A stretch of 64,000 bases of DNA from an uncultured Thermoleophilia bacterium (GCA_963699725.1 CAVOVA010000027.1:170066-234065); one strand, 5' to 3'; counted from the stretch's first letter, positions 35,723-57,100 are shown. Translations and numbers: made by a program. Notes: a model not told the origin generated them from the sequence alone.

Positions 35723-36550
35723 TCAGCCCGCGTACTCGCCGAGCTTGAGGATCTGCCGCGCCTCGTCGGGGGTCGCGCAGGGGCGGTCCCACTCGTGCGC
35801 GAGGCGCGCGACGCGGCCGACGAGCTCGGCGTTCTCCTTCGCGAGCACGCCCTTGTGCAGGAAGATGTTGTCCTCGAACCCGAGACGCACGTTGCCGCCC
35901 AGGGCGAGCGCGGTCATCGTGACCGGCATGTGCCAGCGGCCGATGCCGGTGCAGGTCCAGGTCGACCCCTCGGGGATGCGGTCGACCAGGAACACGAGGT
36001 TCCTCGGCTCGCCGCTCATGCTGCCGGGCACGCCGAGAACGAAGTCCCAGTGCAGCAACGGGCCGGCCGGGCCGTGCTTCTTCACCAGCTTGAGCGCGTT
36101 GTCGATCTGCCCGGCCTCGAAGATCTCGAACTCGGGCCGGACGCCTTTCGTCTGCATGCGCTGGTAGAACTCGCTCATCAGCGCCGTGTCGTTGAAGAAG
36201 ACCTCGTCGCCGAAGTTGGAGGTACCCGTCGTGAGCGAAGCCATCTCCGGGCCCAGCTCCAGCGGCTGCAACCGCTCGTCGGCGGTCATGCCCATGGCAC
36301 CGCCGGTGCTCGTCTGGATGATGATGTCGGTGCGCTCGCGGATCGCCTCGATCGCCGCCGCGAAGACCTCCTCGGCCTGCGTCGGGTTGGCCTCGGCGTC
36401 GCGCACGTGCAGGTGGTACATCGCGGCGCCGGCCTCGCGGCAGCGCGCCGCGTCGGCGCCGATCTCCGCCGCGGTCACCGGCAGTCCCGGCTGAGCATCC
36501 CTCGTGGTCTCGGCGCCGACGCCGGCCACGGTGATGATGAGCTTCTCCAT
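35723..36550 (-). CDS. kce: 3-keto-5-aminohexanoate cleavage enzyme (BKACE family)
   Basis: GAETTR.AQP.LP, HLHVR, STGGA, NFGD, GFEDN; adjacent to kat. Confidence 0.85.
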   Translation of the reverse strand: MEKLIITVAGVGAETTRDAQPGLPVTAAEIGADAARCREAGAAMYHLHVRDAEANPTQAEEVFAAAIEAIRERTDIIIQTSTGGAMGMTADERLQPLELGPEMASLTTGTSNFGDEVFFNDTALMSEFYQRMQTKGVRPEFEIFEAGQIDNALKLVKKHGPAGPLLHWDFVLGVPGSMSGEPRNLVFLVDRIPEGSTWTCTGIGRWHMPVTMTALALGGNVRLGFEDNIFLHKGVLAKENAELVGRVARLAHEWDRPCATPDEARQILKLGEYAG

Positions 36551-36578
36551 CGTCTCCCCCTACTCCGTCGCCGGCCCG

Positions 36579-37847
36579 TTACTTCGAGTACGGGAACTGC
36601 TGGTTCACGAACGCCAGGCTCTCCTCCACCACTTCCAGCGCCCGGCTCAGGTCGCGCTCGGTGTGGCGGTAGCAGATGTACCAGTGGTGATACGGCTGCA
36701 CGAAGAGGCCGCGGCGGATGCACTGCGTGTAGAACTCCGTGCGCCGCTCCCGGTAGTGGTCGTCCACCGGGTCGAAGGTGAGGAACGGCATCGGCGGGAT
36801 GCCGCTCTTGGTCACCGGCACGCCGGAGGCGTCGACGATCTCGCCGAGGGCGTCGAGGAAGCGCGTGCCGCGCTCCCAGATCGCGTCCTGCACCTTCTCG
36901 CGCTCGAGGATCTCGAGGCACTTCATGCTGGCGGCCATCTCCAGGCTGTTGGGGAAATAGGTTGAGCTGAGGAAGGCGTCCTTGACGTAGACCTCCATGA
37001 ACTCGCGCTTGCCGACCAGCGCGGCGATCGAGTAGCCGTTGGCCATCGCCTTGCCGACCGTCGTGAGGTCGGGAGTCACCCCGTAGCGCTCGCTGGCGCC
37101 GCCCATGGCGACGCGGAAGCCGGTGCGGATCTCGTCGAAGGTGACGATGGCGCCGTTCCTGTGCGCCAGGTCGATGACCGCCTGCAGGTAGCCGTCCGGC
37201 GGCACGATGAGCGGCTTGGCCATCGGGTGGCCGACCGGGGTGATGATGACGCCGGCGACCTCGCCCGGGTTCTCGGCGAAGACGCGCTCGAGGTCGCGGA
37301 GGTCGCCGTACTCGAACTCCTTGGTGAGGTCGGTCACGGCCTGCGGGACGCCGCCGTGATGCTCGACGCACCAGTCGCCCCAGCCGTGGTAGCCGCAGCG
37401 GGCGATCTTGTCGCGGCCGGTATAGGCGCGCATGGCGCGCACGGCCGCGTTGGTGGCGTCCGAGCCGGTCTTGACGAGGATGGTCTGCTCACCGCAGGGC
37501 ATGATGTCGGCGAGCCGCTCCTCCAGGTCGTTCTGGAGCGGCTGCACGAGGCTGAAGCAGAAGCCCTTGTCCATCTGCGCCCTGGCGGCGTCGTTGATCT
37601 CGTCCTCGACGTAGCCGAGGATGATCGGCCCGTAGGCGCAGAGCATGTCGATGTACTCGTTGCCGTCGACGTCGACGATGTGGCCGCCATGGCCGTGGGT
37701 GATGAAGACGGGATACTCGCCGACGACGAAGTTGTAGGCGCGGCGGATGCCGCCGACGCCGCCGGGCGTGAGACGCTGGGCGTCCTCGAGCATGGACATG
37801 GACTTGATGAGATTGAGCTTGGGGGCGTTCTCGACGGGTTTCGTCAT
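36579..37847 (-). CDS. kat: Class III aminotransferase, 3-aminobutyryl-CoA aminotransferase (Kat)-like
   Basis: GGV.GIRR.YNFV.GEYP, YHGW.DWCVE, GKAMANGY, QPYHH.YICYRHT match my recollection of Cloacimonas Kat; next to kce. Confidence 0.75.
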   Translation of the reverse strand: MTKPVENAPKLNLIKSMSMLEDAQRLTPGGVGGIRRAYNFVVGEYPVFITHGHGGHIVDVDGNEYIDMLCAYGPIILGYVEDEINDAARAQMDKGFCFSLVQPLQNDLEERLADIMPCGEQTILVKTGSDATNAAVRAMRAYTGRDKIARCGYHGWGDWCVEHHGGVPQAVTDLTKEFEYGDLRDLERVFAENPGEVAGVIITPVGHPMAKPLIVPPDGYLQAVIDLAHRNGAIVTFDEIRTGFRVAMGGASERYGVTPDLTTVGKAMANGYSIAALVGKREFMEVYVKDAFLSSTYFPNSLEMAASMKCLEILEREKVQDAIWERGTRFLDALGEIVDASGVPVTKSGIPPMPFLTFDPVDDHYRERRTEFYTQCIRRGLFVQPYHHWYICYRHTERDLSRALEVVEESLAFVNQQFPYSK

Positions 37848-38370: not shown

Positions 38371-39285
38371 TCAAGGCGCAAGCTCCAGCGACGTCGCGCC
38401 CTCTTCCTCGTGCTCGCCGAGCAGCACTACCAGCAGACCGGCGATGACGATGAGGGCGCCGCCGATCACCGTCCAGATCGAGATCCCCTGGCCGAGAAGA
38501 AGCAGCGCGTACAGCGGCGCCGAGACCGGCTCGAGGTAGCCAAGGATGGAGCTGTGCTGGACCTTGATCAGGCCCATGCCGTGCGTCCACATCAGGTAGG
38601 CGACCGCCGTGCACAGGACGCCGAGCGTGACACCGGCGACCAGATCGCGGGCGGTGAGGTGGTAGCCGGCGGCGACCGTCTGCCACAGCGCCAGCGGCAG
38701 GAGGATGAGCGTGTCGAGCCAGACCTCGGTGAAGACGATAGTCACTGCGGAGACGCGCCTGGTGAGGTCCTTGACCACGAGCTGGAAGGCGGCGTAGCCA
38801 AAGCCTGCGAGGATGCCCGCCGTGACTCCCCAGGCGGAGAGCCGGACGCCCTCGCCGAGCAGAGGCGGCGTCAGGATCACGGCCAGTCCGACGAGGGCGA
38901 TCGCCAGCGCGGGGTAGACGATGCCCTCGGTCCGGGTGCGAAACACGCGCGGCGCGATCAGCGCCACCCAGACCGGCGCGAGGAACTGCAGGAACATGCC
39001 GATGGCGACGCTGGTCCCGCGGATGGCGGCGAAGAAGAGCAGGAGCATGAAGGCGTCGATCGCGGCCATCAGCAGGAGGCGCGGCCAGACAGAACGGGCG
39101 GCGACACCGGCGAGCGGCCGGCGGCGGGCGAAGACCACGCCGAGCACGAGTCCTGCCGTCGCAAACCGCAAGACCAGCAGGGCGCTCTCCGGCGCCGGCG
39201 CCCATTCCACGAGAGCGCCGATGAGCCCCATGATGAGGAAGGAGCCCGCGACGAGCAGGTAGCCGCGCACGGCGCGACTCTTCAT
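38371..39285 (-). CDS. EamA/DMT family transporter (6th of tandem array)
   Basis: About 10 TM helices, VQHSSILGYLEPV. Confidence 0.88.
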   Translation of the reverse strand: MKSRAVRGYLLVAGSFLIMGLIGALVEWAPAPESALLVLRFATAGLVLGVVFARRRPLAGVAARSVWPRLLLMAAIDAFMLLLFFAAIRGTSVAIGMFLQFLAPVWVALIAPRVFRTRTEGIVYPALAIALVGLAVILTPPLLGEGVRLSAWGVTAGILAGFGYAAFQLVVKDLTRRVSAVTIVFTEVWLDTLILLPLALWQTVAAGYHLTARDLVAGVTLGVLCTAVAYLMWTHGMGLIKVQHSSILGYLEPVSAPLYALLLLGQGISIWTVIGGALIVIAGLLVVLLGEHEEEGATSLELAP

Positions 39286-39298
39286 CGGACGCGCGGCG

Positions 39299-40231
39299 TC
39301 ACAGCGGCTCCGGCTCGGCAGCCGCGGCGACCGAGGCCTCGCCCTCGCCGCGCCCGAAGATCACCACCAGCAGACCGGCGCCGAGAATGAGCGCGCCGCC
39401 GATGACGGTCCAGGCGGTCGGCAGCTGCCCTACCAGGAAGACGGCGTACAGCGGCCCTGCCACGGGCTCGATGTAGCCGAGGATGGTGACGTGCTCAACG
39501 CGCACGCGCTTCGTGCCCTCGATCCAGAGCGTGTACGCGATGGCCGTACAGAACACGCCCATGACGACGGCCGCGATCCAGATGCGGTCGTCCGGCTGAT
39601 ACCCCGTACTGCCGAGCTGCCAGAGCGCCAGCGGCAGGACCAGCAGGGCGTCCCCGCCGGCCTCCGCCGTCGAGATGGTCGACGGAGAGACGATCTTCGT
39701 CAGCCCCTTCACCGAGACCGCGTACGTCGCGTAGCCGAAACCGGTGAAGAGGGCGGCCAGCAGCCCGGCGAAGGAGAGCGTGACCTCCTCGCCGACGAGA
39801 TCGGGGACGAGGATCACGGTCAGGCCGGCGAGAGCGAGGGCGAGTGCGGGCCACACGATCGGCTCGCGCGGCGACTTGAAGAGGCGGGGCGCCGCCAGCG
39901 CCACCCAGACCGGCATCAGGAAGAGCAGGAACATGGCGATGGCGACGGTCGTGTGGCGCACAGCGTAGAAGAAGAGAAGCAGGGTCAGCGACGACATCGC
40001 CGCCATGAGGATGAGCCGCCAGGCGGCGCCCGGACGGCGCCAGTCGGCGATCATCGGGCGCCGCAGAAAGACGGCGCCGAGCGCCAGCGCCGCGAACGCC
40101 ATGCGCAGGAAGAGGATGATCGCCTCGGGCGCGTCGGCCCACGCGACCAGCGGCGCGCTGCCGGCCATGCCAAGGTACGAGATCAGGACGATCGCATAGC
40201 CGAGCAGGTCGCGACGCGGAGCGACGCTCAC
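39299..40231 (-). CDS. EamA/DMT family transporter (5th)
   Basis: VRVEHVTILGYIEPV; GTG overlaps upstream TGA. Confidence 0.86.
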   Translation of the reverse strand: MSVAPRRDLLGYAIVLISYLGMAGSAPLVAWADAPEAIILFLRMAFAALALGAVFLRRPMIADWRRPGAAWRLILMAAMSSLTLLLFFYAVRHTTVAIAMFLLFLMPVWVALAAPRLFKSPREPIVWPALALALAGLTVILVPDLVGEEVTLSFAGLLAALFTGFGYATYAVSVKGLTKIVSPSTISTAEAGGDALLVLPLALWQLGSTGYQPDDRIWIAAVVMGVFCTAIAYTLWIEGTKRVRVEHVTILGYIEPVAGPLYAVFLVGQLPTAWTVIGGALILGAGLLVVIFGRGEGEASVAAAAEPEPL

Positions 40232-41172
40232 AGCGGCGGCTCCAGACTCGGCTCGCCGCTGCCGAAAGCCACGACCAGCGCGCCCGCGATCAGGATGAGC
40301 GCGCCGCCGGCGATCGTCCAGGCGGCGATGCCCTGCCCGAGAAAGACGAACGCATAGATCGGCGCCGCGACGGGCGTGATCAGCCCCAGGATGGAACTGT
40401 GCTGCACGCGGATGCGCGCCACGCCGTCCACCCACATCGTGTACGCGAGCGCTGTGGAGACAAGACCCATGGCCAAAGCCGTCACCCAGTCGCGAGAGGT
40501 GAGCCCTTGACCCGAGTCCGCCAACTGCCAGAAGGCGAGCGGCAAGAGGAAGGCCGCGTCGAGGACGCTCTGGACGATGACCAGTGTCACGCTCGAGACC
40601 TGGCGGGTCAGCTGTTTCACGAACAGCTGGAAGAAGGCGTAGGACCACCCGGCCGCAAGACACGCGGCCAGACCGAGGACCGACAGGCTCACGGCGTCGT
40701 CGGCGAACGAGGGCAACAGAATGAGTGCCATGCCGGCGCCGGCGATCACCAGGGCAAAGTACACGAGACGCTCCGTGGCCGCGTGCAGGAAGCGCGGCGC
40801 GATGAGCGCCACCCAGACCGGCTGCAGGAAGAGAAAGAACGTGGCGATGGCCACGCCGACTGTGCGGACGGCAAAGAAGTAGGCGATCACGGAGAACGCG
40901 TCGAGCGCCCCCATCACGAGCAGGCGCTGCCAGTTCCCGGGCTTGAAGACACCGGCGAGAGGCTGTCGGCGGGCGAAGACCACAAGGAGGACCAGCGCCG
41001 CGAGGGCGAAGCGGATCACCATCAGCACGCTCGCCGGTGCGTCGGCCCAGGTCACCAGCGTCGCGCTGAGACCGAAGAGGAGGTAGGAGCCGATGACGAG
41101 CGCATAGCCGGCGGGATCACGGCCGCTCGGCGACGGCGTGGAGGCCGTGGTCCGGCAAGCTCCATCGCTCAT
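40228..41172 (-). CDS. EamA/DMT family transporter (4th)
   Basis: IRVQHSSILGLITPV; ATGA overlap. Confidence 0.86.
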   Translation of the reverse strand: MSDGACRTTASTPSPSGRDPAGYALVIGSYLLFGLSATLVTWADAPASVLMVIRFALAALVLLVVFARRQPLAGVFKPGNWQRLLVMGALDAFSVIAYFFAVRTVGVAIATFFLFLQPVWVALIAPRFLHAATERLVYFALVIAGAGMALILLPSFADDAVSLSVLGLAACLAAGWSYAFFQLFVKQLTRQVSSVTLVIVQSVLDAAFLLPLAFWQLADSGQGLTSRDWVTALAMGLVSTALAYTMWVDGVARIRVQHSSILGLITPVAAPIYAFVFLGQGIAAWTIAGGALILIAGALVVAFGSGEPSLEPPL

Positions 41173-42071
41173 ACGGGAGGCTCCAGCTCGAGATCCCCCT
41201 GCCCGCGCAACACCACGAGGATGCCGGCGGCCAGGATGAGAGCGCCACCGGCCACCGTCCACGCGGTGATGCTCTGGCCCAGGAAGACGAGGGCGTAGAT
41301 GGGTGCCGCCACCGGCGTCAGGAAACCGAGCACCGCGCTGTGCTGGACGCGCACCCAGCGCATACCCTCCATCCACAGCGTGTACCCCACCGCCGTGACC
41401 ACAAGCCCCAGCAGGAGAGCGACGATCAGGTCACGACTCGTGAGCCTGTAGCCGGTGCCCAGAGTCTGCCAGAGCGCCAGCGGCAGCAGGAAGAGTCCGT
41501 CCAGCGCGCACTCGGCAAGAACCATGGAGATGCTCTCCATGCGCCGGGTCAGTCCTTTCGTCACGAGCGCGAACCCGGCGTACGCGAGGCCGCAGGCGAA
41601 TCCGGCCACGAGGCCGAGGACCGAGACGTGGACGTTGTCTCCGAGCACCGCGGGGACCAGCAGGATCGCCAGCCCACAGAGGGCGAGGCCGATGGCGACG
41701 AAGACGAAGCGTTGCGTGGAGCTACCCAGGAGACGCGGTGCGAGCAGCGCGATCCACACTGGCTGGATGAAGAGGAAGAAGGTGCCGATGGCCACGCCGG
41801 TCTCCCGGACGGCGACGAAGAAGAGCAGCAGCGCCGCGGCGTCGAGAGCGCCCATGAGCAAGAGCCGCGGCCAGAGGCCGCGGTCCAGCAGGCTGGCGAG
41901 GCGCCGCCGCCGCCCGAAGACGGCGCCGATGGCGAGGGTGGCGATGACGAACCGCAGGACGAGGAGCACGCTTCCTGGCGCCGTCGCCCAAGTCACGAGC
42001 GTGCCCGACAGACCGATGAGCAGGTAGGAGGCCGCCACCATGGCGTACGCCCGTGCCGTGCGGCCGCTCAT
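41169..42071 (-). CDS. EamA/DMT family transporter (3rd)
   Basis: VRVQHSAVLGFLTPV; ATGA overlap. Confidence 0.86.
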   Translation of the reverse strand: MSGRTARAYAMVAASYLLIGLSGTLVTWATAPGSVLLVLRFVIATLAIGAVFGRRRRLASLLDRGLWPRLLLMGALDAAALLLFFVAVRETGVAIGTFFLFIQPVWIALLAPRLLGSSTQRFVFVAIGLALCGLAILLVPAVLGDNVHVSVLGLVAGFACGLAYAGFALVTKGLTRRMESISMVLAECALDGLFLLPLALWQTLGTGYRLTSRDLIVALLLGLVVTAVGYTLWMEGMRWVRVQHSAVLGFLTPVAAPIYALVFLGQSITAWTVAGGALILAAGILVVLRGQGDLELEPPV

Positions 42072-43030
42072 CCCAGCGGCTCCAGCTCGGGCTCTCCGCG
42101 GGCGTAGAGCACCACCAGGATGCCCGCGGCGACGATCAGCGCCCCGCCGGCGAACGTCCACCCGCTCGGCCGCTGGCCGAGCAGAACGAGCGCGTAGAGC
42201 GGGGCGCTCACCGGCTCGACGTAGGCGATGATGCCCGCGTGCTGGACGCGGATGTAGCGCAGACCGTGCATGAAGAGACTGAAGCTGAAGGCGGTGGTAA
42301 GGAGGCCGAGCAGGGCCGCCATCAACAGGTCGACGCCCGCGTACCGGTACCGGGCGGCGCTCACCGCGAGCAGTCCGGGGGCGAGCATCACCGCGGCGGT
42401 GAACGCGCTCTGCGTGAACACCACCGCCGTGCTGCGCACGTGCAGGCCGCGCAGACTCTTGGCGAAGAGCAGGTACACGGCGTACATCGCGCCGGCCCCC
42501 AAGGCGCAGACCAGCCCGGCGGGCGAGAGCCTCACGCCCTCCAGCAGCAGACCAGGTGCGAGGATCAGCGCCATGCCCGAGAGGCCCACCGCGAGGGCCA
42601 CGTAGACGATGCGCTCGGTCTTCTCCTTCAGGATCAGCGGCGCGATGAAGGCAAGGTACACAGGCGCAAGGTAACTCAGGAAGATCGCCACGGCCACACC
42701 CGTGTAGCGGATGGCGAGGAAGTACAGGATCAGGTTCAGCGCCAGCGCGACGCTGATCCCCAGCATGCGGACGGGCGCGCCCGGCGTACGCAGGTCGCGC
42801 CAGCTGCCGGTGGCGAGCACGACGATGCCGAGCGCGGCGGCCGCGAACGCCATGCGCAGGCAGAGGAGCATCGTCGCCGGCATGTCGGCGTAGGTGACCA
42901 TGACGCCGATGGAGCCGTTGGCGAGGCTGGCGAGGCCGACCTCGAGGTAGCCGCGGAGGCGCTCCGGAGGCTCGGTGGCGGCGGTCGTGGCACCCTCGAT
43001 GCCGTCGGGAGCGGGCCGGGCAATGGTCAT
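42068..43030 (-). CDS. EamA/DMT family transporter (2nd)
   Basis: IRVQHAGIIAYVEPV. Confidence 0.87.
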   Translation of the reverse strand: MTIARPAPDGIEGATTAATEPPERLRGYLEVGLASLANGSIGVMVTYADMPATMLLCLRMAFAAAALGIVVLATGSWRDLRTPGAPVRMLGISVALALNLILYFLAIRYTGVAVAIFLSYLAPVYLAFIAPLILKEKTERIVYVALAVGLSGMALILAPGLLLEGVRLSPAGLVCALGAGAMYAVYLLFAKSLRGLHVRSTAVVFTQSAFTAAVMLAPGLLAVSAARYRYAGVDLLMAALLGLLTTAFSFSLFMHGLRYIRVQHAGIIAYVEPVSAPLYALVLLGQRPSGWTFAGGALIVAAGILVVLYARGEPELEPLG

Positions 43031-43234
43031 GTGTACGCATCCGGCACCACGGGTGGTGCCGGATGCGGTGCCGGCAGAGGCGCCAACCCTGTCACCGACA
43101 CCATGGCCCCGCGGCGCAAAGGCCTGGAGGTCCAGCTGCAGCCCTGACGGTGCGCGTGGGTGCGGCGGTGGCCGGAGCTGCCCGTCCCGCGCAGACCACG
43201 GGCAACGCGCCCCGGTGAGGTGCGCGCGCCGCCG

Positions 43235-44155
43235 TCACGTCAGCGGCTCCACAAGCGGCTCCGCCTCGCCCTTGCCGAAGACGATCACGAGGATGCCGGC
43301 GGCCACGATGAGGGCGCCGCCGGCGTATGTCGTCCACGGCGGCTTCTCGCCGATGAGCAGAAACGCCCACAGCGGCGACGTGACCGGCTCCAGGTACCCG
43401 ATGATGCCGGCGTGCTCCACGCGCACGAAGCGGATGCCGTCCGTGAAGAGACTGAAGCAGAGCGCCGTGTAGATCAGGCCGCTGATCACGACGATCCACA
43501 CGTCAGTCGCCGTCAGCCGGTAGTCGGTGGTCAGCGTCTCCCAGACGGCGAGCGGCGTGAGCAGCACCACGCTGCCAAGACAGAAGAACAGCGCGAACGT
43601 CGAGCCGCGCACGCCCGTTCCCATGCTCTTGATGAGCATCATCGCCGTCGCGAACATCAGCCCCGCGAGCAGCCCGAAGATGACGCCGGGGATGCTCGTG
43701 GCGCCCTCGCCGAGGGCCAGTCCGGGCAGGACGAGGAGCGCCATGCCGCCGACGGCGATGGCCACCGCGACGAGGTCCATGCCCTGGCGCCGTGTACGCA
43801 GCAGCCACGGCGCCAGGAGCGCCACCCAGACCGGCGCCATGTACTCGAGCGAGACTCCGACGGTGACGTTGGCCAAGCGGACGGAGGCGAAGTAGAAGAC
43901 CAGCTCGAGCGCGACGACGAGGCCCACTACGACCATCCGGCGGAAGTGCCCCGAGCTGCGGACCTCCTGCACTCCGCCCGTCGCCAGGAAGAGGATCCCG
44001 AGGGCGATCCCGGCCAGCGCCATTCGCAGGACGATCAGCAGCCCGGCCGGCATCGTGGCAATCTGGATGGTCGTCGCCGAGGTGCCGAGGATCAGCGACG
44101 CGACGCCGATCTCGGCGTAGCCGCGAAGCCGCCGATCAGGGCGGGGTGCGCTCAA
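43235..44155 (-). CDS. EamA/DMT family transporter (1st)
   Basis: VRVEHAGIIGYLEPV; TTG start at 44155 after GAGGGGGG preferred over GTG 44188. Confidence 0.85.
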   Translation of the reverse strand: MSAPRPDRRLRGYAEIGVASLILGTSATTIQIATMPAGLLIVLRMALAGIALGILFLATGGVQEVRSSGHFRRMVVVGLVVALELVFYFASVRLANVTVGVSLEYMAPVWVALLAPWLLRTRRQGMDLVAVAIAVGGMALLVLPGLALGEGATSIPGVIFGLLAGLMFATAMMLIKSMGTGVRGSTFALFFCLGSVVLLTPLAVWETLTTDYRLTATDVWIVVISGLIYTALCFSLFTDGIRFVRVEHAGIIGYLEPVTSPLWAFLLIGEKPPWTTYAGGALIVAAGILVIVFGKGEAEPLVEPLT

Positions 44156-44183
44156 ATCCCCCCTCGCCGATTCAGGGATGCCT

Positions 44184-44222
44184 CTCACTGAGGGGTGCGG
44201 CGCCGCCGCACCCCTCAGTGAG
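44184..44222. terminator. Perfect 18-bp inverted repeat between RACE gene and EamA array
   Basis: ctcactgaggggtgcggc-gcc-gccgcacccctcagtgag. Confidence 0.6.
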
Positions 44223-46023: not shown

Positions 46024-46082
46024 GATCTCTCCTTGCGTTCCGTAAGTACAGGCGAGCGGGTCCTACCCCCTCGACTCCCTCC

Positions 46083-47501: not shown

Positions 47502-48905
47502 TTACAGCCCCGACTCGGCGACGATACGCTGGAGCGTGCCGCGGACCTCGTCGCCGAGCGGCACGGCGGTGTGTTCGGCGACGAGCCGGCCCGCGAGGAT
47601 GGTCGCCTTCGCGTAGGCGCCCTCCCGGCCGGAGGCGATCCACGCGTCCCACATGCTGCGGTCGAGCAGACGCGGACGCCACACGTCTTTCATGTGCCGG
47701 CGCGTGTGGCGCTGGCCAAGGTAGTTGCCGCCGATGCCTACCTGATTGATCGCGTCGAGGGCGATGGTCTCGTCCTCGACCTCGATGCCGGAGGCGATCC
47801 TCGCGTTCCAGCTGAAGATCTCGGAGTCCATGACCAGCTGCTGTGGGCTGAACGCGTCGCCGGCGCCGAGGGTACCGGCTCCGCTGGTCACGTCGGCGCC
47901 CGCGGCGGTCGTGCTGAGCGTGGCGAAGGCGCCTTGGGTGCAGGCCTGCCAATCGGGCTCGTGGCTCACGGTACGCTGACCGCCGGCGACGACCGGCAGG
48001 CCCACCAGGGCCGCGAGCTGAGCGGCGGCGAGCAGGAATAGCGCGGCCGACGGGCCCGCGGCCGGCAAGCCGGCGGCGGCGGGGTCGGCGGCGTAGAAGA
48101 ACGGCGCGCCGGGGGCCGCGGCCTGTACGGCCGCGCACCCGGCGAGCACGCCGGCGTGGTGACGGATCAGGGCGGCGCCGAGGCCGGCGGCAATCGGTGC
48201 GCCCGCATCGTCCCCTGGCGATTTGACCAGTCCGACTGGCAGGCCGGCGCAGGCGAAGGCGAGCGCCGCATCCAGCGCGTCGGCGCCGCCGCAGAGCGAG
48301 AGCGGCGGGCGGCTGCGGGCGGCTGCGGCCGAGCCGGCGACGGCCGCGGTCATCGCGACGGCCGCGTCGGCTTCGGCGGCCGACGTCAGGCCCGAGGCCA
48401 TCACATGCTTGCTGGTGCCGGTCAGGCAGCGCGCGAGCTCGCCGAGCGGAGTCTCGCCGGCAGCGTGCACCGGCGGACCCGCGACGACGGCCACCTCGGG
48501 CAGCGCGTCGGCGAGGCGTACGGCAGCGTCGAGGTCTGCTGCGGTCGCCGGGACGGGGTCGTCGCCGGCGAGCGGGCGTACCCGCGAGGGCACGCCGGCG
48601 GGGCCGGCGGTCGCGATCCCGGCGGCCAGCCAGATCCGACCGGCACCGACGCGCACATCGTGCTCCGGCGCGCGCCCGGCGAGCACGAAGCTTGGGGGCG
48701 CCGACTGAGCCGCGGCCTCGGCCGCGGCGGCCTCGGCGCCGAGCAGCTCGAGCGCGGCCGCGTGCACGCGCGCCACGTCGTCATCGCTCAGCACGCGCAG
48801 GGCGAGGCGCGCTCGGGTCGTCAGGATGGAGCGCGCCCGCGGCAGCGCCTGCGGCGCGCCGCCGGCGGCGCCCGCCGCACTCGCGACGTTCGACGGCTCG
48901 GTCAC
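47502..48905 (-). CDS. Divergent, Ala-rich MttB-superfamily protein #5
   Basis: RVH.AALE, LADALP, EPDWQA, QLVMD.E, YLGQRHTR; internal deletions. Confidence 0.72.
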   Translation of the reverse strand: MTEPSNVASAAGAAGGAPQALPRARSILTTRARLALRVLSDDDVARVHAAALELLGAEAAAAEAAAQSAPPSFVLAGRAPEHDVRVGAGRIWLAAGIATAGPAGVPSRVRPLAGDDPVPATAADLDAAVRLADALPEVAVVAGPPVHAAGETPLGELARCLTGTSKHVMASGLTSAAEADAAVAMTAAVAGSAAAARSRPPLSLCGGADALDAALAFACAGLPVGLVKSPGDDAGAPIAAGLGAALIRHHAGVLAGCAAVQAAAPGAPFFYAADPAAAGLPAAGPSAALFLLAAAQLAALVGLPVVAGGQRTVSHEPDWQACTQGAFATLSTTAAGADVTSGAGTLGAGDAFSPQQLVMDSEIFSWNARIASGIEVEDETIALDAINQVGIGGNYLGQRHTRRHMKDVWRPRLLDRSMWDAWIASGREGAYAKATILAGRLVAEHTAVPLGDEVRGTLQRIVAESGL

Positions 48906-50338
48906 CTTCTGCTCCCCTCTGCCTCGGCAAGCACAGCCTGCAGCCGGTCGCGGATCGAGTCTTCAAGTGCGAACGCGCGCGGCTCGTCGCGCAGCTCCTG
49001 CGTGCGCGCGGCCACGCGCTCCCTGAGCGTGGTCGCCCCGGCGGCGGCCCAGCGGTCGTGCGTCGCGCGGTCGAAGAGGCGCGGCGCCCACGTCTCGCGG
49101 TGGTGCTGACGCGTGTAGCCCCGGCCAAGGTGACTGCCGCCTGGACCGACGGCGTCGATCTCATTGAGCGCCAGCGCCTCGTCGTCGACGCCCACCTCGA
49201 CCAGCAGCGCGCGGGCATAGCTCACCAGCTCGTCACCGAGGACCACCGTCTGGTAGCTGCTCTGCATGCCGCTCTCGAGGTAGCCGACGTCGTGGAGCAG
49301 CGTGGCGCGGCTGAGCGCGCCGAGCACCGCCGTGATGCCGGCCTCGGCGGCCCACTGCTCGTCGAACGTCTTGGCGTCGGCGACGGCGGCGTAGGCGAAG
49401 CTCGGCAGCCCGTAGAAGCGGGCCAGGTCCGTTGCCGCGGCGTTGCCGAGGAAGTGCTCGGGCGCGCCGTACACGTCGACGGCGGTGCGCATGTCGAACG
49501 CACCGCAGCCGACACCGTACACAAAGGGCGCCCCTGGCCGTGTCAGCTGGTGGACGACCAGGCCGCTCAGCGTCTCGGCGTTGCCGATCACGATGGTCGC
49601 GGTCATCGAGGCCGGCGCCGTGGTGCCGGCGGCCGGCGCCGGCGCGTAGATCAGCGGGACATCGAGCTCGGCGCAGGCGCAGACCTTGTCGAGCGCCTCG
49701 TCGCTGTGGATCAACGGCGGGTTGGGCATCGCGTAGCAGCCGAAGCTGCGCGCCTCGCCGCACATGGCGGCCATGTCCTTCATGCGGCGCAGGGACACGG
49801 CGTCGTGCGCCGTCGTCAGCAGCGGCTTGCGCGTGCCGGCCAGCATGGCGGCGAACTGGGCCAGGTCGCCGATCTCCGCCGCCACGTCGCTCGGCAGTCC
49901 CATGCTCATGACGAAGTCGAGGTTGGGGAGCTTCTCCGCGAGTGCGGCCATTCCCTCGACGTCGGCGGTCGTGCTCCGCCGGCGCTCGCCGCTGTCGGGG
50001 TCGGTGACGTAGACGCAATCCGACCCCGTGCCGAAGTAGCTGTTACCGTCCTCGAGTTCGAGACCGCCGAGCTCACCGCGGCGCGCGTGGCCCTCGCCGC
50101 CGGACGCGCCGCGCTCCCTGAGCTTGAAGTGGCGCGGCGCGCTCTGCAGGGCGGCGTCGACCAGTGTGGCCGGGATGCGGGCGCGCGTCCCTTCGACGCA
50201 CGCGCCAGCCTGCGCCAGTTGCTCGCGGGCGCGGGCGTGACGGACCTCCACGCCGGTCTCCTCGAGCAGCGCGAGTGTCGCCTCGTGGACGCGCCAGCAG
50301 GCGGCGTCGTCCCACACGGTGAGGCGGGCGGCGGGCAT
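48902..50338 (-). CDS. MttB-superfamily methyltransferase (non-Pyl) #6
   Basis: YFGTGSDC, LDFVMSMGLP, GTTAPAS, LLHDVGYLE. Confidence 0.9.
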   Translation of the reverse strand: MPAARLTVWDDAACWRVHEATLALLEETGVEVRHARAREQLAQAGACVEGTRARIPATLVDAALQSAPRHFKLRERGASGGEGHARRGELGGLELEDGNSYFGTGSDCVYVTDPDSGERRRSTTADVEGMAALAEKLPNLDFVMSMGLPSDVAAEIGDLAQFAAMLAGTRKPLLTTAHDAVSLRRMKDMAAMCGEARSFGCYAMPNPPLIHSDEALDKVCACAELDVPLIYAPAPAAGTTAPASMTATIVIGNAETLSGLVVHQLTRPGAPFVYGVGCGAFDMRTAVDVYGAPEHFLGNAAATDLARFYGLPSFAYAAVADAKTFDEQWAAEAGITAVLGALSRATLLHDVGYLESGMQSSYQTVVLGDELVSYARALLVEVGVDDEALALNEIDAVGPGGSHLGRGYTRQHHRETWAPRLFDRATHDRWAAAGATTLRERVAARTQELRDEPRAFALEDSIRDRLQAVLAEAEGSRR

Positions 50339-50400: not shown

Positions 50401-51867
50401 TCAGGCCCCCGCCAGCTCCTTGTCGGCGCGCGCGACGATCGCGCGCAGCTCGTTTGCGACGTCCTCCGAGAGCGGCTCGGGCTGATAGCTCGCCAGGATG
50501 TCGTCGGCGATCTCCGTGGCCTTCTCCAAGGCGCCCTTCTTGCCCTCCCGCAGCCAGTTGTCGTACGGCGTGCGGTCCCACACGGTCGGGCGCCAGATCT
50601 CCTTCATGTGCTGCCGGGTGTGCTTCTGGGCGAGGTAGGTGCCGTTCGGCCCGACCTTCTTGATCAGGTCGAGCGCCAGCGTCTCGTCATCGACCACGAT
50701 GCCGCCGGCAACCTTCTGGATGATGCCGTAGATCTCGATCTCCATCACCATGTGCGGGTAGCTGAGGATCTTGGAGCCGTTGAGCAGGCCGGCGCCGTTC
50801 ATCATATCGGCGCTGGTCATCACACTGGCGAAGGTGCTGAGCGAGTCGTCGATCGCGGCCTGCCAGTCGGGCTCCTTGGCCCCGGTGGCCATGGTGCCCA
50901 TCGCCATCGGCACGCCGTAGAAGTGAGCGAGCTGGGTGGACGCGCCTGCAAGGAGGTAGTCCTCGGGCGAGCCGCCGGTGTACCCGCCGGTCTTGAGGTC
51001 GATCACGCTCGGAGCGCCGGCGAAGAAGGCCGGCACGCCCGGGTAGGCCAGCTCGAGGAGGACGACGCCGCTGAGCGCCTCGGCGTTCTGGACGACGAGA
51101 TTGCCGGCCAGCGTCGCCGGGCCGGTCCCGGCCGCGAGCGGCATAGGCATGAAGCCGCTGGCCAGCCCATGCTCGGCGGCTACGAGGTTGGCCTCGAGGT
51201 TGGGACCGTCGTGCGCCAGCGGGTCCACTGCACACTGCATGAAGCTGAGTATCGGACGCTCGCGCAACGCATCCGTTCCGCCGGCGATCGTGGCCGCCAT
51301 CTCGACCAGGTAGCGGGCGGGCTTCTCGCCGACCGTGGTCACCGTCTGGAAGTGCTTGCTGGTGTTGGTGAACACGGCCTCGGCGTCGTGCAGCGCCTTG
51401 GTCGCGGGAGGAACGTCCTGACTGGTGACCACAGGGCCCCAGTAATAGCTGATGCTGGGCAGCGCGTCGACGAAGCGAGCGCTGGTCGCCGCGTCGGCCT
51501 TGGTACTCGGCCGCTTCTCGCCCTTCTTGTGGTCCCAGACGAAGACGCCGGAGCCGTCGTTGCTGAGGTAGCTGTGCTTGCCGTCGACGAGCATGTCGCA
51601 GGCGGGGTCGCGGCCGGCGAGCACGTAGCTGTCCGGCACCTGCGAGACGGCCTCCATGACGACCGCGCGAGGGAGCTTGGCGACCTGCGTCGCGCGGTCG
51701 ATCTCACACCCGTTCTGCTCGAGGACGTCGAGGGCGCGTTCGCTCGGGAACCGGATGCCGACCGTCTCGAGGACGTCGAGCGTGGCCTCGTGAATGCGCT
51801 CGAGCTCGCTTGGGTTGAGCACGTCCCACCTGAGACGGGGGGCGATGGGATTGATTCGGGTGGTCAT
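50401..51867 (-). CDS. MttB-superfamily methyltransferase (non-Pyl) #7
   Basis: NTSKH, GTGPATLAG, DL.TG, EPDWQA, VGP.G.YL. Confidence 0.9.
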   Translation of the reverse strand: MTTRINPIAPRLRWDVLNPSELERIHEATLDVLETVGIRFPSERALDVLEQNGCEIDRATQVAKLPRAVVMEAVSQVPDSYVLAGRDPACDMLVDGKHSYLSNDGSGVFVWDHKKGEKRPSTKADAATSARFVDALPSISYYWGPVVTSQDVPPATKALHDAEAVFTNTSKHFQTVTTVGEKPARYLVEMAATIAGGTDALRERPILSFMQCAVDPLAHDGPNLEANLVAAEHGLASGFMPMPLAAGTGPATLAGNLVVQNAEALSGVVLLELAYPGVPAFFAGAPSVIDLKTGGYTGGSPEDYLLAGASTQLAHFYGVPMAMGTMATGAKEPDWQAAIDDSLSTFASVMTSADMMNGAGLLNGSKILSYPHMVMEIEIYGIIQKVAGGIVVDDETLALDLIKKVGPNGTYLAQKHTRQHMKEIWRPTVWDRTPYDNWLREGKKGALEKATEIADDILASYQPEPLSEDVANELRAIVARADKELAGA

Positions 51868-52051: not shown

Positions 52052-52150
52052 CCTCGCGCGCGACAAAACGCAGCGGGTTGCCGCGCGGTGCAGCGGTTTT
52101 TCAGTCGACGGAGCGGGCGGCGCAGCGCCCACCCGCCCCGTCGGCGAAGG

Positions 52151-52732
52151 TCAGCTCGGGTCGAGGCCGAGCCGCTCGGCCATCGAGCGCCCGAGCGCCC
52201 GGGCCTGGGCCATGAGCTCCGCGTCATCCGCCGCCGACCCGGGCTTGTCGGCACACCCGCCGAGGGCCACCACGGGCAGCTCTTCGGGGTTCGACAGCGC
52301 CACGAAGCGGCGCATGGCCGCCAAGGTGTCGTCCGCGCTGGACTCCGCGGCGACGGCGATCAGGCCCACGACTTTCGGGGCCAGCCACTCCTCGTGGTAG
52401 TAGCGGGTGGCGTTGCGGTCCATGAACGTCTTCATCTGCCCCGAGACGTTCTCGTAGTAGATCGGCGTCGCAAGGATGAGGCCGTCGGCCGCGTACACTT
52501 GCTCGAGGACGCCGGGCATGTCGTCGTCGTGGGGGCAGGACTGCCGCTCGCCGCAGTTCTCGTGGCCGTCGCAGGCGTTGATGCGCACCTCGGAGAGCAC
52601 GATCCGCGTGCAGTCGCAGCCGCTGAGCTGGAGCTCCTCGAGGGCGGCGTCGACCAAGGTCGCGGTATTGCCGCCTCGCCTGGGGCTGCCGATCACGGCG
52701 ACGACCTTCAGACGGGCTTCAGGAGCGCTCAT
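52151..52732 (-). CDS. Iron-sulfur flavoprotein / flavodoxin family
   Basis: GSPRRGGNT, C..H..C.....C...DDM, TP.Y...VSGQMK.F.DR; RBS GGAGG. Confidence 0.85.
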   Translation of the reverse strand: MSAPEARLKVVAVIGSPRRGGNTATLVDAALEELQLSGCDCTRIVLSEVRINACDGHENCGERQSCPHDDDMPGVLEQVYAADGLILATPIYYENVSGQMKTFMDRNATRYYHEEWLAPKVVGLIAVAAESSADDTLAAMRRFVALSNPEELPVVALGGCADKPGSAADDAELMAQARALGRSMAERLGLDPS

Positions 52733-52782
52733 GTCAATGCCTCCGGATGTAGGTGACGTGGCTTGGACGACGTGGCTCCGGC

Positions 52783-54195
52783 CTAGTCTGTCAGACCGGC
52801 GTGATCGCGAAAGCGCTGGACGCAGTTTATCGGCAGGTCGAGCAGCTCCGCGATCCTGAACTTGGCCTCCATGGCGCTGGACTGGGTGGGGTAGCTGATC
52901 TCGAAGGTCGTGATGCGCCCCAGCTGCCGCTCCCTGCGCACGTCTTCCATTGCGATGGGGTCGGAGAGATCGAAGGGACTGACTCCGAGACGCTCTGCAA
53001 CGTACGCCTTGGCATCGCCGATCCGCATCCCCCGAGTGATCTGCATGCGCGCCACCAGATCTCCAGCAGCGCGCATCCCGCACATCCCCGAGGCGGTCGC
53101 GTGGGCACACGGCATCCCGAGAGGGTCGCCGCCGCCGACCTACAAGCCGTCCAGCCGCAGGATGTCGACGGTGGCTCGCGAGGCGCGCGCGACCGCATCC
53201 AGCGGCAGGTAGCTGGTGATGGGGACGGCGCCGACGCCCATGCCGATGTTCATGTGCACGGGGATCTCGGCCACTTCCATGCACGGCTTGACCACCGTCA
53301 GCGCGCGCGCGATGTTCCACGCCCCCGAGCGGCGCGTGTTCACGGTGACGGCCGGCCCGTAGATGGTCGCTCCTGCCCGGCGAACGAGCTCCATCTGCCC
53401 ACGGGGCCAGAGGCCGGCCAGGCGTACGCCGTCGTACTCGAGCCGGCCGTGCATCCCGAGGACGAACTCGCCGGCCATGCCGACCTGGATGCCCATGTCG
53501 GGGTGGGCCGCCCGGATCCGCTCGATGGCGAGAAGGGTGGCCAGGAAATCGCCGTCTCCGGCGGCGCCGGCGGTGTCGAAATCGATGCCGTCGGCGCCGG
53601 CCTCCCACAAGGCGTCGGCGGTCTTCACCATGTCCTCGACAGCGTGCCCTACCGCCTCTTCCTGGGCCGCCCGCGCCTCGTCCACGCGCGCCAGCGGGAG
53701 CAGCTCCGACCAGTTGGGCGCCGGACCGTCGGGCCTCGAGTACAGCCCCAGGTTGGGCATCGCCCCGTACATCACCGGCACCGTCAGGACCGCCTGCGCG
53801 TCTTTCATGCTCTGGGCTTCGAACGGCAGGATCGTCCGGATGGCCTTGAACGAGTAGTCGACGTGCCCGAGCTCCACAGAGTCGGCGCCGAACATCTGCT
53901 CGTAGATGAGCAGGTCCTGGGTGCGCGTCCCGACCGTCTTGGAGCCGGAGCCGTCGTACGTGAGCACGACCTCGTCGCCGATGTCGACGGCGGAGAACTT
54001 GGCCGGCGACGCCCAGATCTCCAGGAGGTGATCGAGCTCGTCCTCGGCCAGCGGCGGCACCTTGGCTCGGCCCGCGGCCGCCAGGGTGCCCTCCTCGAGC
54101 TCGGCGCGGAGCTCGCTCCGGGTCATCCGCGTGAGCGAACCATCGCCCATGCGGGTGGGGTAGTGCGTCTCCATCTTGCGGCTCTCCCTCGTCAC
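52783..54195 (-). CDS. mtbB: Dimethylamine:corrinoid methyltransferase with in-frame amber (pyrrolysine) at 53140-53142
   Basis: TRMGDG N-terminus, GAMPNLGLY..PDGP, FDT.GAAGDGD; ...LRLDGL[TAG]VGGGDPLGMP..H..ASGM.G.RAAGDLVARMQ continues in frame to 52783. Confidence 0.9.
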
Positions 54196-55631
54196 TGGGT
54201 AGTAGCGCCCGCGGCGCGCGCGTAGCGCTCGAACGTGCCGCGCGCCTCGCGGCGGGCATCGTCGGGAATCGGTGTGGGCACGTGCGCGGCGAGCACGGCT
54301 TCGGCGCGCTCCAGCGCGTCGCTCACGAGAGACCGCCCAGCGAACTCGGACAGGCTCCCGCGCTGGAAGACCGACGGACGCCAGATCTCGCCGCGGCGTG
54401 AGCCCTCGCGGGAGCTCCGCCGACCGAGGAAGTGGCCTCCGGGGCCTACCGCGGCGATGTCGTCGAGCAGCGTCGACGCGTCGTCCACCGCCGGCAACCG
54501 GAGGAGCCGGCGCAGGGACCCGATGGTGTCACAGTCGAGCATGACCTTGGCGGTCGAGATGGCCTGGACCGAGTCCACGAGCCCGACGGCCACGAGCATG
54601 TCGGCCCCGGCGAGGACGGTCGCCATTCCGGTGATGGCGCCCTCGGCGCCGGCCTGGAAGTTGGCCGCCTTGGCATCCGAACTGATCCCCGAGCCCATGC
54701 TGGGGAGCCCGAGGTGCTTGCTCATGGAGAGGCACACCATGTCGAGCAGCGCGACCTCCGGGGCCCCGCACAGGTAGCCGCCGGTGCGCAGGTCGGTCGC
54801 GCCACCGGTGGCTGCGACCGTCAACGCGCAGCCGGGCACCGCGGTCTGGAAGATGACGATCCCGGCGAGGAACTCCGCGATCCCGGTCACGGCCGAGCCC
54901 AGGATGCTCATCGGACTGGTCGATCCCATCAGCGGCAGCGGATGGACGTTGATCGACACCCCATGACGCGCCAGCTCGATCGCGGCGTCGAGCTTGTCGC
55001 TCTCGAACTGCAGCGGCGACACGGGGCAGTGCAGGGAGGAGTAGATGGGTCGCTCGGAGAGCGGCGCGCCCGCGATGGCCTCGAGCATCTCCAGCAGTGG
55101 CGGCACCTGCTCCGGCGAGTGCGCGACGATGCTCTGGACGTGCTTCGAGGTCGACTCCAGGGCGATCAGGTCGGTCTCGAGGCCGCCCGTGAGATCGTCG
55201 AAGCGGGGGTTCGTGAGCGTTGTCCAGACGAAGTCGATCTCGGACAGGGCGTCGAAGAGGCCGAAGTAGTACTCGAGATCGGCTTGGGTGGCCCCGCGCA
55301 CCTCGCCGGTCGCGTCGTCCATGACCATCGTCGCCATGCCGTCGGTGGTGCAGGCGAGCGGCGAGCCGTCGCCGACGACGAGGTCGCGCGCCGGGTCGCG
55401 CCCGGCCATGCGGATCTGGCGCGGCGTCTGTGCGAGGCAGCTCTCCACAAGCGCCGGCGGAAGCTTGGCGACCCGGCGCTCCCGGTGGACCTCCGCCCCC
55501 GCCGCGGCGAGCAGGCGAAGGACGCTCTCCGAGCCGACACCCACGCCAATGTGCTCGAGGACGTGCAGCACGCGCTGGTACAGCGCGTCCTTCTCGGCCG
55601 CCGAGAGGCAGTCGACCCGCGGCGCGGTCAC
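54192..55631 (-). CDS. MttB-superfamily methyltransferase (non-Pyl) #8
   Basis: TSKH, CPVSPL, GSTSP, GAPE, SSDAK...QAG.E; GTGA overlaps at both ends. Confidence 0.88.
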   Translation of the reverse strand: MTAPRVDCLSAAEKDALYQRVLHVLEHIGVGVGSESVLRLLAAAGAEVHRERRVAKLPPALVESCLAQTPRQIRMAGRDPARDLVVGDGSPLACTTDGMATMVMDDATGEVRGATQADLEYYFGLFDALSEIDFVWTTLTNPRFDDLTGGLETDLIALESTSKHVQSIVAHSPEQVPPLLEMLEAIAGAPLSERPIYSSLHCPVSPLQFESDKLDAAIELARHGVSINVHPLPLMGSTSPMSILGSAVTGIAEFLAGIVIFQTAVPGCALTVAATGGATDLRTGGYLCGAPEVALLDMVCLSMSKHLGLPSMGSGISSDAKAANFQAGAEGAITGMATVLAGADMLVAVGLVDSVQAISTAKVMLDCDTIGSLRRLLRLPAVDDASTLLDDIAAVGPGGHFLGRRSSREGSRRGEIWRPSVFQRGSLSEFAGRSLVSDALERAEAVLAAHVPTPIPDDARREARGTFERYARAAGATTQ

Positions 55632-57100
55632 TCCCGCGCCGCCGCGTCGCGGTCCGCCGCGTCGACGATGGCGCGGATCTCGCGCACCACGTCGTCCGGC
55701 AGCGGCTCCGGCATGTGCGTGGCGAGAATGCGGCGCGCCTCCTCCAGCGAGCGCTGATGCAGATCCTTGCCGCCCGCGGCGGCCCAGTCCTCTCGCACCC
55801 TGCGGTCGATCAGCTTGGGCTGGGACTGACAGCGCATGAACTTGAGCGTGGAGTCCAGGCTGAGGAAGTCCCCGAAGGGGCCCACCTGAGCGATGTCGTC
55901 CACGCCGAGCAACTCGTCGTCCATCGGGACGCCCCCGACCGCGTGCTTGATCATCCGAGCGAACTCGTTGTCCATGACGAGCTGGCCGAAATCGAACGCG
56001 ACACCCGACTCGATCATCCCCGCGCCGTAGATCAGGTTGGCACCTGCCAACGCCGGCAGCAGCGCGGTCAGCGTCTTCTCGTGACCGGTCTGAGCGTCGA
56101 AGAGCTTGGAGTCGCCCTACAACCCGGCGACGTAGCTCGGCAGGCGATACCGCCGCGCGATGGCGGCGACGGCGGCGCTGATCACGCCGCACTCCGGCGA
56201 GCCGACAGAGGCGGCGGCGAGGCGCAGGTCCATGGCCGTCGTCGAGCTGCCGTAGAGCACCGGAGCGCCGGGACTGGCGAGCTGCGCGAGCGTGATCCCG
56301 GCCAGCACCTCGGCGTTGTGGACGACGAGGGTGCCGGCGAGGTTGACGGGGGCCGACCCGCCCGACATCGCCATCGAGAGGACCAGACAGGGTACGCCGG
56401 CCCGGGCGGCCGAGACGATGGCCTCGGAACACTCCTTCGGCAGCCGCAGCGGGCTGACGGGGCAGACGCCGATCATCACGATCGGGCGCCGCCGCAAGGC
56501 CTCCCGGCCGCCCACCGCGGCGGCGGCGATGTCGAGGATCACCTCCGTCTCCCACCTGGAGAGTGGACCGGCGCAGATGTGCTTGGAGGTGTTGAGCACC
56601 GCCGCCTCGTAGCTGTGGATCGTCGCCGTCGCGGTGGGCATGTCGTGGGCTCCGACGGCGATCTCGTAGGCGTCCAGCTCATCCAGGTAGTCGGCCAGTC
56701 GCGCGGTGTCGGCGACGTCCTGCTTGGTCGGCTCGCGCATCTCGCCGGTCTCGAGGTCGGCGATCTTCAGGCCCTCGCCGAACGTGGTGAAGCCGACGCG
56801 ACCGGCGTCGAGCATGATGTCGTCCCTGGGGCTGCGGCCGGCGGCGAAGACGCGCTCCGGTGACGAATCGATGGCCGCCTCGACCAGCCGGGGCGGGATC
56901 CTCACTACGCCGGTCGCACGATCGACGATCGCGCCCCCGGCCTCGAAGATGTCCGTCGCCTCACGGTCGTCGGAGAACACGCCGGTCTGCTCGAGGACCT
57001 CCAACGTGGCGAGGTGCAGGTCCCTGAACTCGTCCTCGGTGAAGGCATTCAGGCTGAAGCCTCCACTGCGCGTTCGCCCTGAATGGGCACGTCGTTTCAA
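55628..57100 (-). CDS. mttB: Trimethylamine:corrinoid methyltransferase with in-frame amber (pyrrolysine) at 56117-56119
   Basis: ...LPSYVAGL[TAG]GDSKLFDAQTGHEKTLTALLPALAGANLIYGAGM... continuous frame; TTG start after GGAGGAGG. Confidence 0.92.

Follow-up and report, generated by a model that had tools for sequence, protein, structure and literature searches.

A conserved gene unit joining lysine 2,3-aminomutase to non-pyrrolysine MttB-family methyltransferases in uncultured Thermoleophilia points to a possible breakdown route for a methylated lysine-like compound

Within a 64,000-nt stretch of an uncultured Thermoleophilia bacterium from soil (GCA_963699725.1 CAVOVA010000027.1:170066-234065; hereafter the window), a 21-kb run of co-oriented genes at positions 35,723-57,100 brings together methyltransferases of the MttB family, a corrinoid-protein activase, permeases, and genes of lysine fermentation. 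This run is a composite of a variable module encoding pyrrolysine (Pyl)-type methylamine methyltransferases and a conserved core with the order mttB5-mttB6-mttB7-kamA-RACo-6xEamA-kat-kce. The recurrent pairing of kamA, the gene for lysine 2,3-aminomutase, with the MttB5 clade points to an undescribed breakdown route for a methylated lysine-like compound. Our interpretation, to which we assign somewhat less than an even chance, is that the core imports and demethylates a compound that we infer to be of the methylated lysine type, and that the product feeds lysine fermentation. What would be new is the coupling of an MttB-superfamily system to amino-acid fermentation, with lysine-derived compounds as a candidate substrate class.

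A first-pass annotation had placed the genes from the Pyl-type mttB through kce on the minus strand, and all of them are present there, in the order and at the positions it gave. As the G+C content of the window is ~70%, reading frames were set by third-position G+C (GC3), and start codons were assigned in a separate step. The assembly that holds the window comprises 3.24 Mb in 28 contigs and is 87% complete; positions of the form C27:x kb refer to the source contig C27 and not to the window. The core, which lies entirely on the minus strand, opens with mttB5 (50401..51867; PF06253, 326 bits), followed by mttB6 (48902..50338; 249 bits) and the divergent, Ala-rich mttB7 (47502..48905; 161 bits), whose GTG start overlaps the mttB6 stop. 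All five MttB genes of the run are full-length and exceed the PF06253 gathering cut-off of 25 bits. No in-frame stop interrupts mttB5, mttB6, or mttB7, and their scores against TIGR02369 (458, 310, and 221 bits; 300 bits for mttB2 of the upstream module) are below the cut-off of 525; because of these scores and the lack of a TAG, all four genes fall outside this equivalog and belong to the non-Pyl members of the family. Downstream follow kamA (46083..47378; TIGR03820, 559.5 bits vs. a cut-off of 525.4) and a gene for a RACo-type reductive activase (44236..46023), whose product consists of a 2Fe-2S domain, a linker, a middle domain, and a C-terminal ASKHA ATPase (PF14574, PF17651, PF17650, and PF00111, all above their cut-offs) and is one of three paralogues in the genome. 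Next come six tandem full-length EamA/DMT permease genes (38371..44188; PF00892, two domains each), located at 43235-44188, 42068-43030, 41169-42071, 40228-41172, 39299-40231, and 38371-39285; the copies are 35-42% identical to EamA1, and such genes occur only at this locus in the genome. The core closes with the genes for a HemL-like class-III aminotransferase (36579..37847; PF00202, 166 bits), the candidate Kat, and for a beta-keto-acid cleavage enzyme (BKACE; kce, 35723..36550), which reaches 381.7 bits against NF052387 (KCE) and thereby misses the cut-off of 382 by 0.3 bits. ARAGORN also reported a 97-nt ‘tRNA-Glu’ at 38881-38977 within the EamA6 coding sequence, which is probably a false positive.

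The related loci stem from metagenome-assembled genomes whose records name them as uncultured Thermoleophilia or Actinomycetota, and linkage was counted for Thermoleophilia-type loci with enough flank that were found in scans with MttB5. The joint occurrence of mttB, kamA, and RACo, for which a synteny search had been proposed, was confirmed: kamA follows the mttB5 orthologue within 5.5 kb at 45/45 genome and 17/17 metagenome loci (62/62 in total), RACo then follows kamA at 45/45 and 15/15 loci, respectively, and the kamA linkage recurs in a second lineage, as described below. It persists across mttB5 identities of 68-96%, despite a variable number of EamA genes and variable upstream genes. 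A counterpart of mttB7 (≥35% identity) is found at 45/45 genome and 14/17 metagenome loci, and mttB6 at 34/45 and 5/17. A comparison of ten same-genus genomes over ±19 kb revealed the order mttB5-(mttB6)-mttB7-kamA-RACo-EamA(1-7)-aminotransferase-BKACE in all ten, with the contig of G018 stopping at kamA; mttB5 is mostly preceded by mttB0 rather than by the Pyl module in these genomes. The co-oriented run goes on downstream into GGDEF and UPF0182 genes in the window, and where the contig continues, each of the two is found in 9/10 of these genomes.

Within the genus, 54 genomes were surveyed, of which 46 hold both MttB5 and KamA, 4 hold neither, and 4 are discordant, two at contig edges (G006 and G434) and two in fragmented assemblies (G013 and G433, with 330 and 1070 contigs). 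Two of the four genomes with neither (G381 and G435; 1.7-1.8 Mb, ~98% complete) yielded no match to KamD either and very few MttB candidates. Within the genus, the gene sets for methylotrophy and for lysine seem to be accessory. Outside this group, the kamA orthologues of other Actinomycetota (53-58% identity, n = 9) have kdd adjacent in 8/9 cases, MttB, RACo, or EamA genes flank kamA at 0/9 of these loci, and an MttB5 match was obtained in 0/5 of the kamA-carrying genomes that were searched. Separately, kamA is split into at least two frame-shifted pieces in G004, G010, G011, G019, G446, and G447, which may be pseudogenes or assembly errors.

The MttB5 scans further revealed eight loci of a second, distant lineage (L094, L095, L168, L171, L172, L175, L176, and L178). 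Here, the gene order is sigma-54 activator, NhaC-family transporter, GNAT, kamA, mttB5-like gene, corrinoid protein, and MttB, optionally followed by another corrinoid protein. GNAT and kamA are located immediately upstream of the mttB5-like gene at 7/8 loci, and L178 has kamA without a GNAT gene. RpoB is 83% identical between the genomes of L094 and L095 (G426 and G427), and each is 55% identical to RpoB of the Thermoleophilia genome; L094 and L095 were therefore counted as one lineage, and a count of ‘three phyla’ was rejected. One record bears the label Desulfovibrio sp. and the other Bacillota bacterium; given the RpoB similarity, at least one of these labels is doubtful. When the L094 gene was compared against all 49 paralogous PF06253 matches of the Thermoleophilia genome, mttB5 was the reciprocal best match (54% identity, 553 bits), with the next paralogue at 34% identity and 272 bits. 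Both second-lineage genomes encode KamDE elsewhere without kamA, and their sole other KamA-like gene is 43% identical. The rearrangement common to both lineages is that the only close lysine 2,3-aminomutase gene stands beside MttB5, with kamDE elsewhere. In the KamA tree, the Thermoleophilia sequences group with canonical KamAs from actinomycetotal lysine clusters (support 93/92), whereas the second-lineage sequences form a separate clade (support 100/100), which indicates a separate recruitment of kamA in the two lineages. Given the orthology of MttB5 and the separate KamA clades, kamA moved beside the same MttB clade twice.

The closest counterpart of the second-lineage corrinoid protein in the Thermoleophilia genome is encoded at C27:389.7 kb (53% identity). 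The surrounding locus (L184; C27:381-396 kb) has two genes each for corrinoid proteins and URO-D-type methyltransferases, together with genes for YheO-like and TetR regulators, an aminotransferase, an MttB, and an arginase-family protein; nothing connects it to lysine. The GNAT of the second lineage is 157-182 aa long and has no match to the beta-lysine acetyltransferase model, its best NCBIfam score being 54 bits at a cut-off of 124; an assignment as AblB-type GNAT was rejected on these grounds.

The lysine genes of the core look canonical. Against the Clostridium enzyme (PDB 2A5H), KamA reaches 533 bits, and it keeps the CxxxCxxC motif, the pyridoxal phosphate (PLP)-binding lysine, the carboxylate Arg, and the two Asp residues, which we take to bind PLP, the substrate carboxylate, and the epsilon-ammonium group, respectively. 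Its gene is present as a single copy, with one tblastn match in the genome. The BKACE scores 280 bits to the Cloacamonas Kce (PDB 2Y7D), and its metal ligands and catalytic residues are conserved: E14, H46, H48, S82, E143, R226, E230, and D231 are kept by eye in the 2Y7D alignment, with residue numbering and roles (Zn ligands and catalytic residues) presumably as in that enzyme. For the aminotransferase, the best matches are GSAM models, with scores below their cut-offs. The 3-aminobutyryl-CoA aminotransferase Kat has been described as ‘HemL-like’ (PMC3149608), and this likeness by description, together with the adjacency to kce, makes it probable that the gene at 36579..37847 encodes Kat. A 668-aa fusion of a HemL-like aminotransferase with a BKACE domain (P0089) was also found, which is 80% identical to the aminotransferase of the window. 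KamB, KamD, KamE, a thiolase, and Kdd are encoded together at C27:294.8-300.8 kb, ~80 kb away, where neither kamA nor kce is present. Taking the candidate Kat as such, the genome would hold one complete Kat-variant lysine fermentation pathway, distributed over two loci. As the active sites are canonical, kamA is single, and the KamB/D/E-thiolase-Kdd genes lie elsewhere, kamA, the candidate kat, and kce look like the organism’s ordinary lysine genes, and the idea that they form a self-contained new backbone pathway had to be dropped.

Based on gene content, the following sequence of steps can be proposed. The EamA permeases would import an N-methylated lysine-type compound, for which N-epsilon-trimethyllysine or its less methylated forms are the best guess. 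MttB5, possibly together with MttB6 and MttB7, would move methyl groups onto a corrinoid protein that is encoded elsewhere in the genome and would be kept reduced by RACo. The freed lysine would then enter ordinary fermentation through KamA encoded here, KamDE and Kdd encoded ~80 kb away, and Kce and Kat encoded here. A bolder version, in which the MttB5 clade represents the first corrinoid-dependent methyltransferase acting on an amino-acid side chain, i.e., N-epsilon-trimethyllysine, and the three paralogues strip it stepwise to lysine, is in our view unlikely. If true, it would provide a route for anaerobic trimethyllysine use that is free of trimethylamine (TMA) and would take the chemistry of non-Pyl MttB enzymes past quaternary amines. 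Trimethyllysine is widely released when proteins are broken down; its demethylation by anaerobes would matter for how methyl groups move through peat and sediment and for the TMA-free use of quaternary amines. None of the papers searched joins trimethyllysine with MttB; a single one mentions both an aminomutase and MttB, without a link between them. Most MttB-superfamily members have no assigned substrate, and a neighbourhood link that arose twice makes lysine-derived methylated amines a testable class for one clade.

Comparison with MtgB, the glycine betaine methyltransferase of Desulfitobacterium hafniense, further restricts the substrate of MttB5. The glycine-betaine-binding residues of MtgB, described as Y97, R312, H348, and F356 (PMC13080624), align with G105/S106, A322, N357, and S365 of MttB5 and are not conserved. 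An assignment of MttB5 as a glycine betaine enzyme was therefore rejected, and a different substrate is expected. Furthermore, MttB5 has an Ala at the Pyl position; together, these residues argue against glycine betaine and TMA, yet they do not point to a particular substrate.

Several observations weigh against a demethylation route of this kind. When KamAs from canonical loci (n = 9), the second lineage (n = 8), and Thermoleophilia (n = 10) were compared, the residues equivalent to R134, D293, D330, and K337 were invariant in 27/27 sequences, and only two conservative columns distinguished MttB-linked from canonical KamAs. As the binding residues are unchanged, there is no sign that KamA fits a methylated side chain; it probably needs free, plain lysine, and a specialised KamA was rejected. 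The run lacks a corrinoid protein and a corrinoid:tetrahydrofolate (THF) methyltransferase. There is no B12-binding match within the window, and the nearest among the 22 in the genome are located at C27:158 kb and C27:237 kb. A complete set of substrate methyltransferase (MT1), corrinoid protein, second methyltransferase (MT2), and activase is thus not encoded together in the cluster. A gap of 523 bp separates the EamA array from kat-kce. Characterised non-Pyl MttB members, as far as they are described in the sources consulted, remove one methyl group from a quaternary amine, and full demethylation to lysine by such an enzyme would be unprecedented. Moreover, the synteny within the Thermoleophilia group is inherited and counts as one event; only two independent lineages are available, and synteny inside each is not countable repeatedly. 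Three MttB5-like lineages (L164, L174, and L179; 61-74% identity to the L094 gene) have no adjacent kamA. At one of them (L164:1525-3986), GNAT-kamA is replaced by genes for an M20 peptidase and an amidinotransferase/DDAH-like protein, with the NhaC-family transporter gene on one side and the mttB5-like gene on the other; these neighbours hint at a broader tie of the MttB5-like clade to modified basic amino acids. Of the earlier proposal of a new N-methyl-lysine pathway, the conserved kamA-MttB5-RACo-EamA-kat-kce link has stood, whereas the substrate is still conjectural and KamA shows no adaptation to it.

The first alternative to be weighed is that there is no functional link at all: an ancestral rearrangement would have put the lysine genes into an MttB-rich island, the order would have been inherited, and the second lineage would reflect coincidence or shared regulation. 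The genome indeed contains 49 PF06253 matches (eight with one in-frame TAG, 10 inside the window), 23 of which lie between C27:83 kb and C27:243 kb, i.e., within ~160 kb around the window, and unrelated genes for pilins, GGDEF, and UPF0182 proteins are scattered in the same island. The canonical active sites of KamA and Kce, the completion of the lysine pathway by the second locus, and the three MttB5-like lineages without adjacent kamA fit this explanation as well. What it leaves unexplained is the G426 genome, which at 2.5 Mb has only two PF06253 genes, both flanking the kamA operon; crowding as the whole explanation was rejected for this reason. The second-lineage MttB beside kamA is, moreover, the reciprocal-best orthologue of mttB5 among 49 candidates, the KamA tree indicates two separate recruitments, and the linkage at 62/62 loci has outlasted divergence of mttB5 and changes in EamA number and upstream genes. 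We consider an absence of any link improbable.

Less probable still, and doubtful in our view, is a reading in which KamA, with or without GNAT, prepares the substrate by converting a methylated lysine into its beta-isomer, optionally N-acetylated, as the true substrate of MttB5, followed by a Kat/Kce-like shortening. It has a precedent in the phosphorylation of choline by MthK before MthB acts, as described in PMC12155760. The position of GNAT and kamA directly upstream of the mttB5-like gene at 7/8 second-lineage loci would suit this order of events, as would the beta-aminotransferase and beta-keto-acid cleavage enzyme at the end of the Thermoleophilia core. However, none of the 27 KamAs shows a change in the residues that bind the epsilon-ammonium group, Kce retains the residues of the 3-keto-5-aminohexanoate enzyme, the single kamA is required by the KamDE/Kdd locus for the canonical pathway, and the Thermoleophilia core has no GNAT.

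GNAT-KamA pairs are known to make N-epsilon-acetyl-beta-lysine, which applies to AblB/AblA of methanogens and YodP/KamA of Bacillus subtilis. A role in osmolyte housekeeping, with KamA (and GNAT) making a beta-lysine solute and MttB consuming a betaine in a shared regulon with separate carbon skeletons, would fit the resemblance to these pairs, the match of KamA to the ‘AblA’ model TIGR03820, and the NhaC-family transporter at the head of the second-lineage operon, but is very improbable, since the GNAT fails the beta-lysine acetyltransferase model, the Thermoleophilia core has no GNAT and its kamA is trailed by the catabolic kat-kce in a genome with KamDE and Kdd, and MttB5 lacks the glycine-betaine-binding residues of MtgB.

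The organization of the run is in line with the coupling of demethylation to lysine fermentation. Start and stop codons overlap by 4 nt between mttB1 and mttB2, between mttB6 and mttB7, and from EamA2 to EamA5, and short gaps are present as well. A terminator-like hairpin with a T-rich tail, detected by a consensus scan only, lies on the minus strand at 35657..35672, 50 bp after the kce stop, and is the probable 3' end of the unit; of the ten terminator-like hits in total, nine are either within genes or on the opposite strand. Overlaps, short gaps, and the terminator-like site are features of an operon. A promoter scan returned no sigma-70-like site, the consensus being uninformative for this organism. 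RNA-library data were given no weight: 7% of sampled words were present in one run, whose contigs come from relatives and reach 29/30 bins, and a 293-nt contig that crosses the kamA-RACo junction (45841-46130) proves neither a single transcript nor transcription.

The upstream part of the run comprises genes for trimethylamine and dimethylamine (DMA) use. A divergent gene for a TetR/BetI-type regulator (57083..57865, plus strand; PF00440 and PF13977) is followed on the minus strand by mttB1, mttB2, mtbB, and a flavoprotein gene. The Pyl-type trimethylamine methyltransferase gene mttB1 (55628..57100) passes TIGR02369 with 686 bits at the cut-off of 525 (PF06253, 294 bits); its in-frame TAG at 56119-56117 aligns by eye with the Pyl position of Methanosarcina barkeri MttB (PDB 7xcl). 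The non-Pyl mttB2 (54192..55631; PF06253, 220 bits) has a GTG start that overlaps the mttB1 stop by 4 nt. The Pyl-type dimethylamine methyltransferase gene mtbB (52783..54195; TIGR02368, 458 vs. 369 bits; PF09505, 559 bits) has an in-frame TAG at 53142-53140 and also uses TAG as its terminal stop codon; the genome has 10 mtbB-like hits. The FMN_red-family flavoprotein (52151..52732; PF03358, 93 bits) has a Cys-rich insert, and the name ‘Isf’ is plausible for this candidate. Decoding of Pyl in this genome is supported by PylD (203 bits vs. a cut-off of 150), whose gene adjoins a tRNA-Pyl with the anticodon CUA. Expression of Pyl-type mttB and mtbB has been described for Actinobacteriota of thawing permafrost peatland (PMC10805028), and methylotrophy of the group is therefore already known in outline.

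At 67 Thermoleophilia-type loci with ≥5 kb upstream, the gene preceding mttB5 is mttB0 in 30/67, an mttB5 paralogue in 14/67, and the flavoprotein of the Pyl module in 11/67, and varies in the remainder. As most relatives lack the module at this place, the Pyl genes are a variable insertion outside the conserved unit: the module TetR-mttB1-mttB2-mtbB-flavoprotein, for trimethylamine and dimethylamine, is strain-variable and was inserted upstream of the core. The TetR/BetI-type gene adjoins mttB1 orthologues at L034, L045, and L093, and so accompanies the module in relatives. Scavenging of released TMA and DMA, which had been proposed as part of the pathway, is baseless because no TMA-releasing enzyme is present, and the Pyl genes belong to the variable module. 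The striking 21-kb run thus mixes a conserved core with a variable module, which calls for caution in annotation.

The remainder of the window holds further genes of note. Upstream of the run (57892-63999), another amine-related set consists of mttB0 and genes for a second TetR/BetI regulator, an enzyme of the agmatine-deiminase type (PF04371), and a DAO-family oxidoreductase. An aromatic-amino-acid-lyase gene (18563-20158, plus strand; PF00221, 532 bits) is divergent from two adjacent MttB genes (~15483-18367, minus strand), and in this set (16880-20158) a lyase of the betaine or histidine type could work together with methyltransferases. Furthermore, a class I/II aminotransferase gene (6668-7864) adjoins or overlaps an MttB gene (5155-6804), and another MttB match on the plus strand (~12814-14190) is absent from the GC3 gene list.

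Parts of the core resemble several known systems. In the second lineage, the GNAT gene just before kamA recalls AblB/AblA and YodP/KamA; however, this GNAT is short, is followed by two MttB and two corrinoid-protein genes, and is absent from the Thermoleophilia core. With the Pyl methylamine systems, represented by MttB/MtbB of M. barkeri (7xcl), the run shares mttB1 and mtbB, which score above the equivalog cut-offs and each contain an in-frame TAG, and the genome shares pylD and tRNA-Pyl; both genes sit in the variable module outside the kamA-linked core. MtgB of D. hafniense (PDB 9yce/2qne) belongs to the same superfamily and fold class, is likewise non-Pyl, and scores 252 bits to MttB5, which differs at all four glycine-betaine-binding residues. 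The Kat variant of ‘Candidatus Cloacamonas acidaminovorans’, described in PMC3149608, has the same set of KamA, KamDE, Kdd, Kce, thiolase, and a HemL-like aminotransferase that replaces Kal; here, the lysine genes are found at two loci ~80 kb apart, with kamA and kat-kce among MttB, RACo, and EamA genes. The closest parallel in logic is offered by the MthB/MthC/MthA/MthK system: in Eubacterium limosum, the gene for the MttB-family protein MthB co-localises with that for MthK, which handles its substrate (PMC12155760). In both cases, a non-Pyl MttB-superfamily enzyme is encoded with an enzyme acting on the non-methyl part, and the co-localisation recurs across genomes, as far as that source describes it. 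In contrast to the Mth system as described, a radical-SAM lysine 2,3-aminomutase takes the place of the kinase, and the Thermoleophilia run carries no genes for the corrinoid protein and the THF methyltransferase.

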